Below the pieces are notes generated by a model, which was given only the letters and a program-made list of their open reading frames with translations, did no database searches and was not told where the DNA came from. Made by a program: the position numbers and the translations under genes. From NCBI GenBank assembly GCA_963743885.1, contig CAVURJ010000001.1:279488-343487 (forward strand): a stretch of 64,000 nt of DNA. The letters run 5' to 3'. The stretch comes from Candidatus Moraniibacteriota bacterium (GTDB taxonomy: Bacteria; Patescibacteriota; Minisyncoccia; Moranbacterales; UBA1568). Positions 1,319 through 61,182 of the stretch are shown here, piece by piece; within the stretch, counting starts at the first letter, position 1; every line of letters starts with the position of its first letter.

Positions 1319-1381
1319 TAGGCCGATATCTGTAAGAGTTTTGACACGGCGCCGACATATAGATATAATTACCATGGCTTA

Positions 1382-1540
1382 AATAACGGGTATTTACTCT
1401 CCAGGGCAAGCCCTGGACCAAAAAACGAACTAGTGTTCGTTTCTTTCCGCGGCAAGCCGCGAGGTATTTGACCCGATTTTACCTGCACTCGCTCAGAAAC
1501 GAAAGTGTACTTTCGTTTCACTCACTTCGTTTGGTAATAA
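1382..1540 (-). repeat. Copy X of a ~170 bp structured intergenic repeat family, inverted relative to copies at 48693-48870 and 58263-58423
   Basis: The reverse complement aligns base-for-base with the other two copies (ttaccaa..gtgagtgaaacga..hairpin..cgaacggagcg.aggtaaaatcgggt..cgcggCTTGccgcg..gggCTTGccc..gtgaatacccgttat). Confidence 0.75.
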
Positions 1541-1551
1541 AAGCTTTTTTT

Positions 1552-4563: not shown

Positions 4564-7107
4564 ATGTTGTGGAAGAGATTCGCATCGTATGATGCGGAAA
4601 GCTCGCTTGCTGAGCTCCAATCGTCGGTCGATGGGCTGTCGGAGGAATCCGTCCGGAGTCGGTTTTTGACGTTTGGAAAGAATGAGCTGGGCGGTAAGAA
4701 GTCATTCATCTACGAGGCCTTGCGTCGCCGCTTCAAGTCGTCGTTCCTCTACCTCTTGCTCGCTGCTGCCGTACTGGCGCTCTTTCTTGGGGATCGCCTT
4801 GATGCTCTCTTGATCGCCTTGTTCGTGGCAATCAATATTGGTCTCGAGACGTATCAGGAATATCGCTCTGAGCGATCGGCAGAGCTGCTCAAGAAATATC
4901 TCATCGTACGGGTGCGTGTCAGGCGTGATGGCCGTATGGTGATGACGGAAGGGAAGAACATCGTCCCGGGCGATATTGTGCTCGTGGAACCAGGTGACCG
5001 TCTGCCAGCTGATATCCGTTTTATCAAATCTGACGGCATCGAGGTGGATGAGAGCGTTATGACCGGTGAGTCCGTCGCTGTCGCGAAGACCGCCGATTCG
5101 CCGGACGTGCCACCGACAGAGATGTATGAGGCGGTGAATATCGGCTTTGCGGGGACCATCGTGACAGCGGGGCGTGGCGAGGGAGTGGTTTTTGCGACGG
5201 GCAAGGAGATGGCGCTTGGCGATATTGTTACGCTGACCGAGGGGACCGACCGTGAGACGGTTTTTGAGAAGGGTATGGCCCGGTTTAGCCGCTTTCTGGT
5301 GCGTCTGGTACTCCTGACGCTCACGATTATCTTTCTTGCGAATATCTTCATCAAGGGTGATGGGGCCGATCATATCGAACTCCTCGTCTTCTCGATCGCG
5401 CTTGCGGTCTCGGTGGTACCGGAGGCACTGCCGCTCGTCATGACGGTCTCCTTGTCACGCGGAGCTGTTCGTCTGGCGCAGAAGAAGGTCGTCGTGAAAC
5501 GACTCTCGGCTATTGAGGATCTCGGGAGTATCGAAGTGCTCTGTACCGACAAGACAGGGACGCTGACAGAAAACATGCTTTCCGTCGTTGATGTGCTCGC
5601 GCCCGATCGCGCAGCTTGTCTCACGGCAGCGTTTCAGGCTTCTCTTGAGGTGCCTGAGACGCGTGCTCATCTGCATGACGCTTTTGATTTGGCGCTCTTT
5701 CAGTCCTTGTCGGCCGATGAGCGGATGGTGGCGCTCGAGAAAGAGCGGATTGGGAGTATCCCGTTTGATCCGGAGCGTCGGCGCAACAGTGTGTTTGTCC
5801 AAGGCGGAAATGAACGCGCCATTATCGTGCGCGGAGCACCGGAAGAGATATTCCGTCTCTCGCATGGCATGGACCGGTATACCAGGATGCAGGCGACAGA
5901 ATTCGTAGCTGCTGCTGGGCGAAAGGGGCAGCGTGTCATCGCAGTTGCTTCAAGGCAGCTGCATACCGATGAGAAATGTACGGCGTATAGTGAGCAGAAT
6001 CTTGCGTTTCTCGGATTGATTGCTTTTTCTGATACGCTCAAGAAGACGGCCAAGCGGACCATTGCTGAGGCGCGCTCGCTCAACGTCGCGGTCAAGATTT
6101 TGACCGGTGATAGCCGCGAGGTGGCTGGCTCTGTCGGCTACGCCATCGGGCTGATTGATGACCCGGAGAAGGTGTTCACGGGTAAGGAGCTCGATGAGAT
6201 GCCGTACGAGGAGCGTCGCGACGCGGTTTTTTCTGGCTCTGTCTTTGCTCGTGTCTCGCCGCAGCAGAAGCACGATATCATCAAGCTGCTCCAGGAGCGC
6301 TACGGAGTCGGATTTCTTGGGGAGGGGATCAACGATGCGCCGGCGCTCAAGCTGGCGGATGTCGCTATCGTAGTGGATAGTGCTTCCGATATCGCTCGTG
6401 AGACGGCGGATGTCGTGCTGCTCCAAAAGAGCCTTGAGGCGCTCATCGATGGGATCCGGGAGGGGCGTTCTATCTTTGCCAATATTCTCAAGTATCTCAA
6501 GATCACGCTGACATCCAATTTTGGCAATTTCTATTCCGTCGCGCTCGCATCGCTCCTTCTGCCATTCGTGCCGCTTTTGCCGGTGCAGATTCTTCTCCTC
6601 AATCTTCTTTCGGATTTTCCGATGATTGCTATCGCGACCGACACCGTGGACAAGGCCGAGCTTGACCGACCGAAGAGCTACCAGATGCACACAGTGATCT
6701 ACCTGACGACGCTTTTTGGTGTCGTGAGCTCAGTCTTCGACTTTATGCTCTTTGGATATTTCTACCGCATTTCTCCGGAGGCACTCCAGACGGCTTGGTT
6801 TATGCTTTCTGTTATCACCGAGGTTGTGCTCATCTTTTCGCTTCGCACCAGCTTCGCCTTCTTCAAGGCCCGTCGTCCGTCCTTTGCGCTTATGTTCTTT
6901 TCATTCACGGCGCTCCTCATCGCGGTGGTGCTGCCGTTTACGTCGTTGGGCCAGGTGCTCCACTTTGCGCGCCTCGAGACGAGCTCACTCATCTTTATCG
7001 GCTGTTTGGCTGCCGGCTATTTCATGGTGACTGAGCTGGTCAAGCACATGTACGAGCGGCACCTGCGCCAGTCGCGCCGGGACGTTGCCGATCCGGTTGC
7101 CGCGTGA
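4564..7107 (+). CDS. Cation-transporting P-type ATPase (P2/P3-type, Mg2+/Ca2+-like)
   Basis: DKTGTLT phosphorylation motif, TGDS, GEGINDAPALKLADV hinge motif, multiple TM segments. Confidence 0.85.
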   Translation: MLWKRFASYDAESSLAELQSSVDGLSEESVRSRFLTFGKNELGGKKSFIYEALRRRFKSSFLYLLLAAAVLALFLGDRLDALLIALFVAINIGLETYQEYRSERSAELLKKYLIVRVRVRRDGRMVMTEGKNIVPGDIVLVEPGDRLPADIRFIKSDGIEVDESVMTGESVAVAKTADSPDVPPTEMYEAVNIGFAGTIVTAGRGEGVVFATGKEMALGDIVTLTEGTDRETVFEKGMARFSRFLVRLVLLTLTIIFLANIFIKGDGADHIELLVFSIALAVSVVPEALPLVMTVSLSRGAVRLAQKKVVVKRLSAIEDLGSIEVLCTDKTGTLTENMLSVVDVLAPDRAACLTAAFQASLEVPETRAHLHDAFDLALFQSLSADERMVALEKERIGSIPFDPERRRNSVFVQGGNERAIIVRGAPEEIFRLSHGMDRYTRMQATEFVAAAGRKGQRVIAVASRQLHTDEKCTAYSEQNLAFLGLIAFSDTLKKTAKRTIAEARSLNVAVKILTGDSREVAGSVGYAIGLIDDPEKVFTGKELDEMPYEERRDAVFSGSVFARVSPQQKHDIIKLLQERYGVGFLGEGINDAPALKLADVAIVVDSASDIARETADVVLLQKSLEALIDGIREGRSIFANILKYLKITLTSNFGNFYSVALASLLLPFVPLLPVQILLLNLLSDFPMIAIATDTVDKAELDRPKSYQMHTVIYLTTLFGVVSSVFDFMLFGYFYRISPEALQTAWFMLSVITEVVLIFSLRTSFAFFKARRPSFALMFFSFTALLIAVVLPFTSLGQVLHFARLETSSLIFIGCLAAGYFMVTELVKHMYERHLRQSRRDVADPVAA

Positions 7108-11373: not shown

Positions 11374-11636
11374 CTAGTGAAGCAAAGAGAAGTGGTCTTC
11401 TGCCACTTCCCTTTGCTTTTTAGGGGTAATGGGAATCGAAGGGCGCGAGTCGGATGCGAGTGAACGAGCATCCTGTGTGTAGCGCCCAGGCTCCGAGTCG
11501 GAGCGAGGAGGATTCCCGTATCTCGCTCAAGACTAGTATATCAATGAGGCGGGTTGGATTTTTACCCGCCTCTGGCGGGCCCGTTACCCGCTCATAAGAA
11601 TAAAAGACCCTGGCTTATTCCGGGTCTTTTGTTTTT

Positions 11637-28720: not shown

Positions 28721-28888
28721 GCTTTTGTGCTTGAGGTATAGACAGGATTTCAGCATGTATGTTACTATGTAAGTGAAGTAAACAAGAGAGTTTATAAAGT
28801 TTTTCAAGTTCCTAAAGTTTATAAAGTCCTCACACTCTCTACAAACTTGATAGACTTTATAACTTTATAAACTTATAAATAAAATACT

Positions 28889-34092: not shown

Positions 34093-34192
34093 GTCCATAA
34101 AGTCCATAAAGTTTTTAAAGTTATAAAGTTCGTGGTTTCGGTGGAGTAGCCGGCTTTGTGAACTTTACAAACTTTCAACTTTACAAACTTAT

Positions 34193-48520: not shown

Positions 48521-48692
48521 TATCGGCTGTTTTTCAGTGCGATTGCCAGGCCATCGAGATGTCTTTTGTGGGACATGGCGGTGGCCTGGTTGTGTTTTTG
48601 AAATCCAAAAATCAAAATCACAAATCCCAAACAAGTTCCAATGACCGAAATTCAAAATCCGAAACGTTTTGAGTTTTGATGGTTGGGATTTA

Positions 48693-48870
48693 TTACCAAG
48701 TGTAGTGAGTGAAACGAGAGTTTACTCTCGTTTCCGAACGGAGCGCAGGTAAAATCGGGTTGAATACCTCGCGGCTTGCCCGCCTAGCCGGCGAGGCTGG
48801 CCGCAGAATAAAACGAACATCAGTTCGTTTTTAGGGTCCAGGGCTTGCCCTGGGGTGAATACCCGTTATA
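48693..48870 (+). repeat. Copy Y of the ~170 bp structured repeat family (with a 21 nt internal insert)
   Basis: Aligns with 58263-58423 and with the reverse complement of 1382-1540. Hairpins with CUUG loops and compensatory stem changes. Confidence 0.75.
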
Positions 48871-48920
48871 ATTTATTTGTGAATTGTGATTTTGAATTTT
48901 GTATTTTTAAGGAAAAAGAT

Positions 48921-58210: not shown

Positions 58211-58262
58211 CCGCAACAGCGGCGACAAGAAAGGGGCTTTCCACAAGAGAGCTCCTTTTCAA

Positions 58263-58423
58263 TTACCAAGCGGAGTGAGTGAAACGAAAACTTGTTTTCG
58301 TTTCCGAACGGAGCGCTGGTAAAATCGGGTCAGATACCCCGCGTCTTGCCGCGGAACAGGACAATCCGACGAAAGGAGGATTGTACGGGGTGCGGGGCTT
58401 GCCCCGCGGTGAATACCCGTTAT
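58263..58423 (+). repeat. Copy Z of the ~170 bp structured repeat family, upstream of tRNA-Pro(GGG)
   Basis: ttaccaagcggagtgagtgaaacgaaaacttgttttcgtttccgaacggagcgctggtaaaatcgggtcagatacc...gggcttgccccgcggtgaatacccgttat. Confidence 0.75.
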
Positions 58424-58483
58424 TTTTTGAAAACCATGAGCATTGTCGAATGGCCGGAATTTTGCTACGGTTAGAGATGTTTT

Positions 58484-58554
58484 CGGGTTGTAGTATACTG
58501 GTAGTACGCGTCCATGGGGTGGATGTAGACCGGGTTCGATTCCCGGCAGCCCGA
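58484..58554 (+). tRNA. tRNA-Pro (anticodon GGG)
   Basis: Acceptor CGGGTTG/CAGCCCG, D-stem GTAT/GTAC, anticodon stem CGTCC/GGATG with loop ATGGGGT, T-arm CCGGG-TTCGATT-CCCGG. Confidence 0.75.
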
Positions 58555-58639
58555 CTTGGTATAAATGCCAAAAAGGAGTTCAAGGCTGGGGGGCGAAAAG
58601 TGAACTGCTTCACTTTTTGCGGGTATCCCCGCAAGACGT

Positions 58640-58695
58640 CCTTGTCTTGCGGAAAGAGGATACCCCGGAACTTGTAGTTCGGGTTCGATTCCCGA
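58640..58695 (+). other. tRNA 3'-half-like fragment (T-arm plus acceptor 3' strand), with no 5' half
   Basis: gtagttcgggttcgattcccgataccccgac parallels the tRNA-Pro 3' end gtagaccgggttcgattcccggcagcccgac. No matching 5' acceptor strand upstream. Confidence 0.45.
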
Positions 58696-58743
58696 TACCC
58701 CGACAAAAAGAAGAACAAGAAAACCGAAACAAAAGATGTTTTT

Positions 58744-60459
58744 ATGCAGAATATAACGATCCGGATAAACGGAGTGACGTTTCCGGTTGAACCAGGCAAA
58801 ACGGTCCTTGATGCGGCTCGTGAGAACGGCATCAAGATACCGGCGCTCTGCTTTCATCCGGATGTCGAGACGAGGAATCATTGCGGTATGTGCGTCGTGG
58901 AGGTCAGGGGCGAGGGAAATCTTCGACATGCCTGCGCGACAACCGTAGAGGAGGGGATGGAGATTACGACTGTTTCCGATCGGATTACTGAGGAACGGAA
59001 GAAGAATCTGGACCGCGTGCTCAAGAAGCATGTGATGGAATGCGACGACTGCGTATGGATGGGACGTTGCCAACTTCTGGAGCTCGTCAAAGAGATCAAG
59101 GCGAAGCCGATAGCGGCGAAACACGAGGAAGATAGGGTGCTCCAGGTGGGTACGATGGTCTTCGACCAGACCAAGTGCATTGGTTGCGAGCATTGCGTGA
59201 GCGTCTGTCCGACGGGATTTCTTGATATGAATGACCGTGGGCGAGTCTGCCCTTCGGCGGATGGCGAGAAGGACTGTGTGAACTGCGGCCAGTGCATCCT
59301 CCATTGCCCGGTCGGCGCCATCGAGGGTGTCGGGGAATTCGAGGAATTGGAGAAGATCTTTGCGGACAAGGAAAAGACGGTCGTAGTGCAGTTCGCACCG
59401 GCAATCCGCGCGAGCATCGGGGACGAGTTCGGCATGCCGGAGGGCACGGTCGCTACGGGCCAGCTGGTAGCCGGTCTCAAGAAGCTCGGGTTCAGTTTCG
59501 TCTTTGATATGGCGTCTGCGGCTGATTTTACGACGATGGAAGAGGCTGGCGAAGTCGTCGAGCGGGTGACGAGTGGAGAGCGCCTGCCAATCATGACGTC
59601 ATGCTGCCCGGCCTGGGTGAAATTCGTAGAGTTCAATTATCCGGAATTCATCCCGAACCTTGCGACGTCACGGTCGCCGCAAATCATGCTCGGTGGCATC
59701 GTCAAGAATTACTGGAGTCAGAAGAATGGTATCGATCCGAAGAATGTCTTCGTAGTGTCCATCATGCCGTGTGTGGCCAAGAAATTCGAAATCAGGCGGG
59801 AGGAGCTCATGATAGACGGCTATCGCCCGGTGGATATGGTGCTCACGACGCGCGAGCTGGCGCGGCTTTTCAAGAAGAAGGGGATCGATTTGAAGGAGGT
59901 CGGCGAAGCGGATGCGGATGGTCCACTCGGTAGTCCGTCGGGGGCGGGTGTGATCTATGGTGCGAGCGGCGGCGTCTTCGAATCGGCACTCCGCACGGTC
60001 TATTACAAGATGACCGGAGAGAATCTTCCAGAGGGAGCAGTTGAGGAGATCCGCGGTCAGGAAGGCATCAAGGGGAAGAAACTTACGATCAGCGGAAAGA
60101 CAGTGAAGGTCTGCGTGGTAAGCGGCATTCGAAATGCCAAGAAGGCGCTTGATATGCTCAAGGAACACCCGGGACTTTTTGATGCGCTCGAAGTGATGGC
60201 CTGTCCAGGTGGATGCATCGCCGGTGGTGGCCAGCCGGTGCCGATAAGTCGCTCTATCGTCAAGGAGCGGGCGCGGTCGCTTTACGCTATTGATAGCGGA
60301 AAGGAGATCCGGTATGCCCATGAGAATCCGGCGGTGAAGGAGGCCTATGAGGAGTTCTTCGTGAATGAGGAGATACGGAAGAAGATCCTGCATACGCGGT
60401 TCGCGCCGAGGGAAAAATCCGATATACAGACGCTAAAAAACTCAAAAGAAACGCTATGA
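58744..60459 (+). CDS. hydA: [FeFe]-hydrogenase catalytic subunit (2Fe-2S and 4Fe-4S N-terminal domains plus H-cluster domain)
   Basis: H-cluster motifs L1 TSCCPAW, L2 MPCVAKKFE, L3 EVMACPGGCIAGGGQP. N-terminal CFHPDVETRNHCGMC ferredoxin-like and CIGCEHCVSVCP / CVNCGQCILHCP 4Fe-4S motifs. Confidence 0.9.
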   Translation: MQNITIRINGVTFPVEPGKTVLDAARENGIKIPALCFHPDVETRNHCGMCVVEVRGEGNLRHACATTVEEGMEITTVSDRITEERKKNLDRVLKKHVMECDDCVWMGRCQLLELVKEIKAKPIAAKHEEDRVLQVGTMVFDQTKCIGCEHCVSVCPTGFLDMNDRGRVCPSADGEKDCVNCGQCILHCPVGAIEGVGEFEELEKIFADKEKTVVVQFAPAIRASIGDEFGMPEGTVATGQLVAGLKKLGFSFVFDMASAADFTTMEEAGEVVERVTSGERLPIMTSCCPAWVKFVEFNYPEFIPNLATSRSPQIMLGGIVKNYWSQKNGIDPKNVFVVSIMPCVAKKFEIRREELMIDGYRPVDMVLTTRELARLFKKKGIDLKEVGEADADGPLGSPSGAGVIYGASGGVFESALRTVYYKMTGENLPEGAVEEIRGQEGIKGKKLTISGKTVKVCVVSGIRNAKKALDMLKEHPGLFDALEVMACPGGCIAGGGQPVPISRSIVKERARSLYAIDSGKEIRYAHENPAVKEAYEEFFVNEEIRKKILHTRFAPREKSDIQTLKNSKETL

Positions 60460-60968
60460 GCAACGAGAACGTTTTTGCATTCGATCGGAGCAAAGCTCTT
60501 CTTCTGACGCAGTTCGCGGCGCTCGTCGGCATCGCGACGGTCGTGCCGCTCTTCCATCAGCAGATGATCACGGGACCAGTCGTCAATGCGACGCTTTTCG
60601 TGGCAGCTGTCCTCTTGGGAACGCAGATGGGAGTGTTCGTCGGGCTCATCCCGAGCATCATCGCGCTTTCGGTCGGCACGCTGCCGGCTCCGCTTGCTCC
60701 GATGGTGCCGTATATCATGCTCTCGAACGCGATCCTCATCCTCGCGTTCAACGCGTTCCGTGAGAGGAATTATTGGCTGGCGGTCGGCATTGCGAGCGCG
60801 CTCAAGTTCGCGTTTCTGTGGGCGACAAGCTCGGTCGTCATCGGGTTGCTCATGAAGAAGGAACTTGCTGAGAGTGTGGCGCTTATGATGAGCTGGCCGC
60901 AGCTCCTGACGGCGCTTCTCGGCGGCGCGTTGGCGAGTTTGTTTTTGCGCATGTATAAGGCGGAATAG
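60456..60968 (+). CDS. Hypothetical polytopic membrane protein (possibly a small-molecule transporter S-component-like)
   Basis: 170 aa, five predicted TM helices. Start overlaps the hydA stop by 4 nt. Confidence 0.4.
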   Translation: MSNENVFAFDRSKALLLTQFAALVGIATVVPLFHQQMITGPVVNATLFVAAVLLGTQMGVFVGLIPSIIALSVGTLPAPLAPMVPYIMLSNAILILAFNAFRERNYWLAVGIASALKFAFLWATSSVVIGLLMKKELAESVALMMSWPQLLTALLGGALASLFLRMYKAE

Positions 60969-61182
60969 GAGCGTGTTACGTTTCCGACAAGAAACTCTTT
61001 TTGAAGAAAAAGAAAAACTCACCGCTCTTGTTTCTATCGAAACATTTCCCTCCCTCTTCACGACCTGAGGAAATCTTTCGAGAAACAAGAGCGTCTCAGA
61101 CAGTTTCTTTTTCTCAAAAAGACATCTTGCCGGAAACAGTCTTGCCCACCGATTTGTGAGTATCCGATTTTTTACGAACTAA

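Follow-up and report, generated by a model that had tools for sequence, protein, structure and literature searches.

A probable second tRNA-Pro(GGG) gene broken by a two-hairpin insert, and its split and nested relatives in CPR bacteria

Results

An intact tRNA-Pro(GGG) gene is followed by a structured trailer

The window, by which we mean the whole 64,000-nt stretch of DNA analyzed here, carries an intact tRNA-Pro(GGG) gene, a trailer rich in repeats and a gene for an [FeFe] hydrogenase, hydA (Table 1). The intact gene, which we call type A, has the acceptor stem CGGGTTG/CAGCCCG and the anticodon arm CGTCC-ATGGGGT-GGATG and is most likely the gene doing the work in this genome. The first-pass annotation had described hairpins, a long imperfect hairpin and a duplicate of the tRNA 3′ half behind the gene, and a repeat search recovered them all. 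The direct repeat (58524-58555 and 58673-58704) is 32 nt long and identical at 27 positions. The duplicate is thus real, but it ends at 58704 and not, as first annotated, at 58700. The likeness between the two copies runs on into CAAAAAGGAGTTCAAG (58569) and CAAAAAGAAGAACAAG (58704), 16 nt past the tRNA end, and their spacing is 117 nt, without an ORF. The T stems of gene and copy read CCGGG/CCCGG and TCGGG/CCCGA, respectively. The two differences are compensatory, which shows that the copy derives from a different working tRNA. When the whole window was searched for the T-loop motif GGTTCGATTCCC, allowing one mismatch at most, five matches were found against 0.58 expected, namely four tRNAs and the 3′-half copy.

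Inverted repeats fill the space between the two copies. The arms of inverted repeat I3 lie at 58593-58604 and 58609-58620, and a further hairpin (58629-58637/58644-58652) is enclosed by GGGTATC (58621-27) and GATACCC (58659-65) (inverted repeat I6). In a third pairing, I1, the same GGGTATC can also pair with a GATACCC at 58694-58700. The copy had been described as having no complementary 5′ acceptor strand; this does not hold, as GGGTATC pairs with 58694-58700 and a degenerate strand, CTTGGTA, begins at 58555. The 170-nt trailer folds with -65.1 kcal/mol (z = -4.45), and none of 200 shuffles was as stable; the minimum free energy (MFE) fold consists of local pairing, not of the acceptor-like pairing. 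There is no T-tract behind hairpin 1 and a terminator scan of the region gave no call; this hairpin is no canonical terminator.

The trailer contains the probable parts of a second tRNA-Pro(GGG) gene

From 58555 onwards the trailer can be read as a second tRNA-Pro(GGG) gene, type B, with an interrupted anticodon loop. The remnant of its acceptor strand and D arm is CTTGGTATA; the D arm is destroyed. CAAGG-CTGGGG (58581-58591) corresponds to the 5′ strand of the anticodon stem and the loop. On the other side, the 3′ part consists of CTTG (3′ strand of the anticodon stem), TAGT (variable region), TCGGG-TTCGATT-CCCGA (T arm), TACCCCG (acceptor) and the discriminator A. The CTTG strand pairs with the CAAGG at 58581 and cannot pair with the CGTCC of type A. 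Between the two sides, in the anticodon loop, lies an insert of ∼75 nt made up of hairpin 1 and a second hairpin structure, module 2. The resulting order of CTGGGG, hairpin 1, GGGTATC...GATACCC, CGGAA and CTTG has comparable counterparts in other loci described below (L127, L122, L135, L099, L052, and L050).

With the insert removed, the sequence is collinear with a complete tRNA, including its 5′ parts, and identical to the tRNA of locus L003 at 61 of 83 positions. Compared with the outer halves of locus L122, the two sides gave 46/59 identities for the 3′ side and 50/67 for the 5′ remnant, the latter measured together with hairpin 1. The stretch 58555-58580 is weak as a 5′ remnant, as nhmmer did not report it, and this counts against reading the trailer as a dead type-B gene.

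Table 1. Features at the tRNA-Pro(GGG) locus and elements of other type in the window.
Feature	Position	Strand	Evidence
Gly-type elements	2563-2650; 11375-11594		
Type A tRNA-Pro(GGG), intact	58484-58555	+	ARAGORN; Rfam tRNA, 50.8 bits
Putative type B, degenerate 5′ half	58555-58592	+	12-nt exact match of anticodon region to type B
Hairpin 1, GCGAAAAGTGAA-CTGC-TTCACTTTTTGC, first part of insert	58593-58620	+	Inverted repeat I3
Module 2, GGGTATC/GATACCC stem around CCGCAAGAC-GTCCTT-GTCTTGCGG (58629-58652)	58621-58665	+	Inverted repeat I6; MFE fold
Linker CGGAA (conserved) and putative type B, 3′ part	58666-58703	+	nhmmer, tRNA-Pro profile positions 35-72, E = 1e-6
hydA leader (40 nt) and [FeFe]-hydrogenase gene	58704-60459	+	ORF; HydA homologues

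Both parts of the insert have homologues elsewhere. L127, L122, and L003 have homologues of hairpin 1 behind the G-run of the anticodon, and one T-A pair is changed to C-G in a compensatory manner. Module 2 matches L127 (5706-5803) at 74% over 98 nt, and its inner hairpin differs there by a compensatory A-T to G-C change, so that both hairpins of the insert keep their pairing between the window and L127. In L122, L003, and L135 the GGG...CCC frame of module 2 encloses a whole tRNA instead. We considered that module 2 might be a collapsed inner tRNA, and dropped the idea because 36 of 2000 shuffles aligned with as high a score and because the comparison with L127 explains the module better.

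The region was not recognized as a tRNA gene by any of the programs used. The Rfam tRNA model had no match in 58555-58703 at E ≤ 10, ARAGORN called nothing there with introns of 0-600 nt allowed, and removal of the insert (the “spliced” sequence) still gave no tRNA call. In agreement with the first-pass annotation, the 3′-half copy is therefore not a functional tRNA gene, and no valid intron-containing tRNA model covers the region. We conclude that 58555-58703 is probably a dead second tRNA-Pro(GGG) gene, type B, whose anticodon loop was broken by a small two-hairpin insert. Most likely, the remnant is non-functional DNA between the type-A gene and hydA. In itself, the object in the window is an ordinary dead gene copy.

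Type B is intact or nested in related genomes

Orthologous loci were reached via contigs with homologues of HydA and NDK. These homologues bear Patescibacteria source names, mostly Candidatus Moranbacteria, and the loci share the gene order ComEC - MBL - NDK - small ORF - tRNA-Pro(GGG) ... rpmB - M50 - S12 - S7. Among species-representative genomes scanned with HydA, the sole relative was 68% identical and lacked synteny, and the more distant HydA relatives L004-L006 have no tRNA close by. The small Cys-rich ORF gave no candidates as a query, a search of viral contigs for the 3′-half copy gave no match, and the metagenome pattern ACGGTTAGARATGTTTTCGGG had zero matches.

In L003 (HydA 81% identical) an intact type-B gene occupies the place of the window's copy. 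It lies at 420-491, 48 nt before hydA, with the acceptor stem CGGGGTA/TACCCCG. At the position of the window's working gene, all that L003 retains of type A is a truncated 5′ half (CGGGCC..ACGCGTCCATGGGGG), and hairpin 1 comes next. L127 (NDK 93% identical) has an intact type B at 5502-5573, and its 3′ 35 nt are identical to window positions 58671-58705 (35/35, 100%). Downstream of it lies a broken type A that starts with ACGTCCATGGGG, continues with a hairpin plus another module, which together are homologous to window positions 58593-58665, and ends with GGATGTAGACCGGGTTC, a palindrome and AATTCCCGGCAGCCCGA. In L127 the insert of the window is thus found inside the dead type-A copy.

In L135, where NDK is 100% identical as protein and about 80–83% as DNA, type B is split around an intact type A, i.e., the two genes are nested. 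The order is type-B 5′ half with two palindromes in the D loop, spacer, intact type A (97% identical to that of the window), 3′ part and hydA. The 3′ part after type A, CCCCGGAACTTGTAGTTCGAGTTC...TACCCCGA, reads CAACGAAAGTAAACAAATTCCCCGGAA-CTTGTAGTTCGAGTTC, a palindrome and GATTCTGCTTACCCCGA. Four further relatives, L129, L130, L131, and L133 (NDK 88–91%), have a single tRNA-Pro gene without relics.

The copy in the window has orthologues in the outer 3′ part of L135 and in the 3′ end of the gene in L003, both of which stand directly before hydA. The arrangement differs between loci, as type A precedes type B in the window, follows it in L127 and lies inside it in L135. Type A is the paralogue kept in this genome and type B the one kept in L127 and L003. 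Since the copy in the window is the 3′ half of the paralogue type B, the direct repeat reflects the likeness of two paralogous genes and not the target duplication of an integrase. Five related loci from Moranbacteria-like Patescibacteria, which show the copy to be part of a second gene, thus speak against the earlier reading of an att or island duplication.

The site downstream of tRNA-Pro carries variable cargo

The cassette behind the remnant (about 58706-61180) comprises hydA and a 170-aa ORF and lies outside the repeats. The hydA leader is conserved with L003 and L135. The [FeFe] hydrogenase cassette is present in the window, L135, and L003, and has no counterpart in L127 (5885-6035), L129, and L131-L134. 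At the same spot, L130 (5487-7994) has NiFe hydrogenase genes and HypC. As the cassette differs among close relatives, the site after tRNA-Pro is a variable cargo site. No mobility gene, recombinase or flanking repeat was seen at this site between tRNA-Pro and rpmB. In the composition check proposed in the first-pass annotation, the GC content was flat across the site; part of the island idea holds, in that the hydA cassette is variable among close relatives.

Split and nested tRNA-Pro copies recur in CPR bacteria

A pattern scan of metagenome contigs returned 120 CPR tRNA-Pro(GGG) loci. The CPR loci come from many independent assemblies, and a tRNA-Pro(GGG) profile was run with nhmmer on the flanks of 121 loci. 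Partial copies of tRNA-Pro were detected in 22 of these 121. All lay on the same strand as the intact gene, the 5′ halves upstream of it (19/19) and the 3′ halves downstream (12/12), which is the pattern expected from nesting. The 3′ half in the window, lying downstream of the intact gene, has the same polarity. We refer to these objects as split or nested tRNA-Pro copies of CPR bacteria, a grouping defined in this analysis by a break in the anticodon loop beside a G-run, a frame of inverted repeats ending in GGG/CCC, and then YGGAR or TRAA. This combination is present in the window.

In several loci, among them L052, L050, and L099, each outer half is complementary to the other outer half and not to the inner gene, and when the outer halves of these three loci are joined they yield valid tRNAs. 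The breaks in such loci lie at 35/36 and come in two junction forms (slash at the break): ..CATGG/CCCCGC.. with ..GCGGGG TAAA/GGT.., and ..CACTTG/CCCTG.. with ..CAGGG TGAA/GGGT... The inverted repeats around the inner gene covary between loci. A double nest was seen in L052, where two shells enclose an intact tRNA-Pro gene (cut coordinates 660-1042; about 2317-2700 of the locus). The outer shell is a UGG copy (CGGGGTA/TACCCCG), the middle one a GGG copy (CGGGGTG/CACCCCG) and the inner, intact gene again GGG (CGGGATG/CATCCCG). Every shell has a separate inverted repeat that closes it, and the same structure was found in L090, giving two independent assemblies.

The D loop, the T loop and position 43/44 of dead copies harbor additional palindromes rich in GC, of the forms CCTGCC..GGCAGG and CCCGC..GCGGG. 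In L116, L015, L135, and L127, dead tRNA-Pro copies carry a 20-nt GC palindrome, CCTGCCTGCCGGCAGGCAGG, either at GGTTC/GATT or within the D loop. It is near-identical across unrelated assemblies, with one mismatch in the L127 copy, and related CCCGCC..GGCGGG hairpins occur at 25/26 and 43/44. These observations suggest a family of small palindromic mobile elements in CPR genomes. Upstream of tRNA-Pro(UGG), at positions 28-75 of the window, GGATTCCCAGCCCAAGGCTGG is followed by the palindrome TCCGCCTCAGGCGGA. This stretch resembles a fragment of a tRNA-Pro anticodon region with a hairpin insert, by a match that is short and cut by the window end.

Two further explanations for the partial copies were considered. 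Small GIY-YIG ORFs, which might point to a homing nuclease as the driver, are found near six loci, only two of which have partial copies, and show no clear enrichment. Simple partial tandem duplication was rejected because the spacer behind each 5′ half differs from the upstream flank of the gene and because inner and outer copies can be of different types. A search of the window and 20 related loci against Rfam found no family but tRNA, and no group I or other ribozyme match.

Elements behind tRNA-Gly are of another kind

The first-pass annotation had seen the same signature behind tRNA-Pro and tRNA-Gly(CCC). The elements after tRNA-Gly(UCC) and tRNA-Gly(CCC) are, however, of another kind than the tRNA-Pro remnant, as they combine a 14-18-nt repeat from the T loop with an inverted T-loop copy. 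In each such element a hairpin is followed by the T loop and 3′ strand of the tRNA itself in inverted copy, then by a conserved core GAAGGGCGCGAG..GAGGAT and a direct copy. The direct copy comprises the last 14-18 nt of the tRNA, starting from GATT in the T loop. The inverted copy (CGGGAATCGAA-like) covaries with each tRNA, and the core is structured (GAAGGGCGCGAG/RGGCGNAGCGA). The same architecture is found after tRNA-Pro(GGG) in L127 (5574-5678), L061, L016, L089, L071, and L115, the last being a tandem array. At similar distance after tRNA-Ala and tRNA-Ser in other loci, putative inverted copies of tRNA 3′ ends were located by search. From their sequence, the Gly-type elements look like miniature T-loop integration units without an integrase. 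The Gly-type and tRNA-Pro signatures should not be equated.

Other repeats were noted in the window. A structured family of ∼170 nt has copies at 58262-58425 (+), 1381-1543 (-), and 48692-48874 (+) that are about 73% identical and form several hairpins, with 10 predicted pairs kept by two-sided changes. The copy beside tRNA-Pro is an insertion after TTTTCAATT, and the orthologous site is without the repeat in L003, L127, and L135. The family, which had no Rfam match and no copy in 126 loci searched, resembles either a MITE or a multi-copy small RNA. A second family of short intergenic repeats (196-294, 28780-28885, and 34101-34191) is partly palindromic and 65–75% identical, and one of its copies sits directly after tRNA-Pro(UGG).

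Discussion

Alternative readings of the remnant

If the remnant were kept as an RNA structure, it could act as a tRNA-like minihelix for RNase P/RNase Z cutting of a tRNA-hydA co-transcript, or its hairpins could stop or pause transcription. We consider this unlikely. Of the tRNA arms, the T arm has stayed perfect and the D arm and anticodon are destroyed, and a tRNA or its 3′ part stands directly before hydA in the window, L003, and L135. What stands there differs, however, being a full tRNA in L003 and a structure with a palindrome-broken T loop in L135. GGGTATC can pair with the 3′ acceptor strand (I1) and the fold is much more stable than shuffled sequences, but it is the local pairing that the MFE fold prefers over the acceptor-like one, and the lack of a T-tract behind hairpin 1 speaks against a stop signal. 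The compensatory changes in both hairpins relative to L127 leave room for a structural RNA role, for example as a processing or pausing signal. Yet L127 has the same hairpins without hydA, and compensatory changes could reflect function or a property of DNA palindromes.

An integration scar is less probable still. In this reading a tyrosine-integrase element would have entered tRNA-Pro, restored it and left the displaced 3′ half of the host gene downstream, and what remains of the island would be either the 117 nt between the copies or hydA beyond them. Williams is said to have set out, in 2002, sublocation classes for displaced tRNA gene fragments (attR/attL) of integrative elements. Fragments of this kind have also been described as what integrative elements leave behind (van der Gulik et al., 2023; PMC9897764), and since integration is the usual source of tRNA fragments (PMC9897764) the att idea was a reasonable one. 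Integration is classically recognized by a tRNA fragment next to an intact gene (PMC9897764), and the likeness of the repeat extending 16 nt past the tRNA would fit. So would the hydA cassette, which begins exactly at the end of the copy and varies among relatives, and elements resembling T-loop integration exist in this genome and in L127.

Against it, the anticodon stem of the copy is not cognate with the type-A 5′ half, and the copy has a 5′ remnant and anticodon loop of its own just upstream. In L127 and L003 it is the 3′ half of an intact gene, and in L135 that gene is split around an intact one. Nothing coding lies between the copies, hydA being outside the repeats, and the hydA cassette ends on its far side without a tRNA fragment. 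The GC content is 0.50-0.58 on both sides of 58.5 kb without a shift, no integrase is found among the called genes of a 100%-identical Logan contig, and none of the relatives (L127, L003, L135, and the single-gene loci L129-L133) has an empty att site. The window fragment thus resembles att fragments in being a partial tRNA copy in direct orientation beside an intact gene that ordinary tRNA finders miss, but it differs in belonging to the other paralogue, in having its own 5′ remnant, in bracketing no cargo with no integrase found, and in having as its counterpart in relatives a part of an intact or nested gene.

[quoted passage not shown]

Comparison with known systems

A dead type-B gene is akin to tRNA pseudogenes with reciprocal loss of paralogues, in that there are two paralogues, one intact here and the other intact in sister genomes, and the dead copy fails tRNA models. 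What sets it apart is that the window copy owes its death to a defined insert of two hairpins within the anticodon loop and that the copies in L135 are nested, not tandem.

Group I introns have been reported at 35/36 of Patescibacteria tRNA genes (Nakagawa et al., 2026; PMC13011429), without mention of tRNA-Pro or nesting. The phylum is the same, the anticodon loop is likewise interrupted and several CPR tRNA-Pro loci are broken at 35/36. The CPR tRNA-Pro inserts are, however, 35-190 nt long, without a group I core according to Rfam, lie in a frame of inverted repeats and can enclose an entire tRNA gene, and the window copy is unspliceable into a tRNA.

Split and multi-intron tRNA genes of archaea are known from Nanoarchaeum and Thermoproteales (PMC4090602). 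There, too, tRNA genes are interrupted in several loops, and helper helices unite the halves. The CPR organisms are bacteria, though, no bulge-helix-bulge was seen, and an intact copy is always found beside or inside the split one.

A possible route to the present arrangement

Returning to the dead type-B gene, we suppose that the common ancestor of the window genome and its relatives held both paralogues, A and B. An insert landing in the anticodon loop of tRNA-Pro genes would then have broken one copy. Such an insert would be framed by inverted repeats and would elsewhere have an entire tRNA-Pro gene on board. The arrangements of today may have arisen when the repeated tRNA pieces recombined or underwent microhomology deletions with each other, and collapse or reshuffling of nests could have produced the state seen in the window, where an orphaned copy with its insert stands behind an intact gene. 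Because the halves keep a strict polarity, which random decay of tandem copies would not yield, insertion in the middle of the gene is favored.

A broader proposal, which we offer tentatively, is that CPR tRNA-Pro genes are the target of an undescribed site-specific insertion at the anticodon loop (35/36 to 38/39) that has a covarying inverted-repeat frame and is able to carry a replacement tRNA-Pro gene. Under such a scheme the resident gene would be lost with every insertion, so that the cell would come to depend on the cargo copy, and repeated rounds would lead to the “tRNA inside a tRNA inside a tRNA” of L052. The window would then hold a decayed member whose cargo is only a hairpin. In a bolder version, the outer copies at loci such as L052, L050, and L099 might be spliced and functional.

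Implications

A tRNA 3′ half beside a tRNA gene is routinely taken as the edge of a genomic island, which would be wrong here. The alternative hydrogenase cassettes at one site bear on the exchange of metabolic genes among these organisms. The manner of type-B death and the nested relatives appear to be undescribed, as apparently is the recurrent breaking, nesting and replacing of tRNA-Pro genes in ultra-small bacteria. If a tRNA-carrying insert drives the breakage, that insert would represent a novel type of selfish element, one which destroys a gene and rescues it at once, and, if true, this would affect how tRNA gene sets are counted in CPR genomes.
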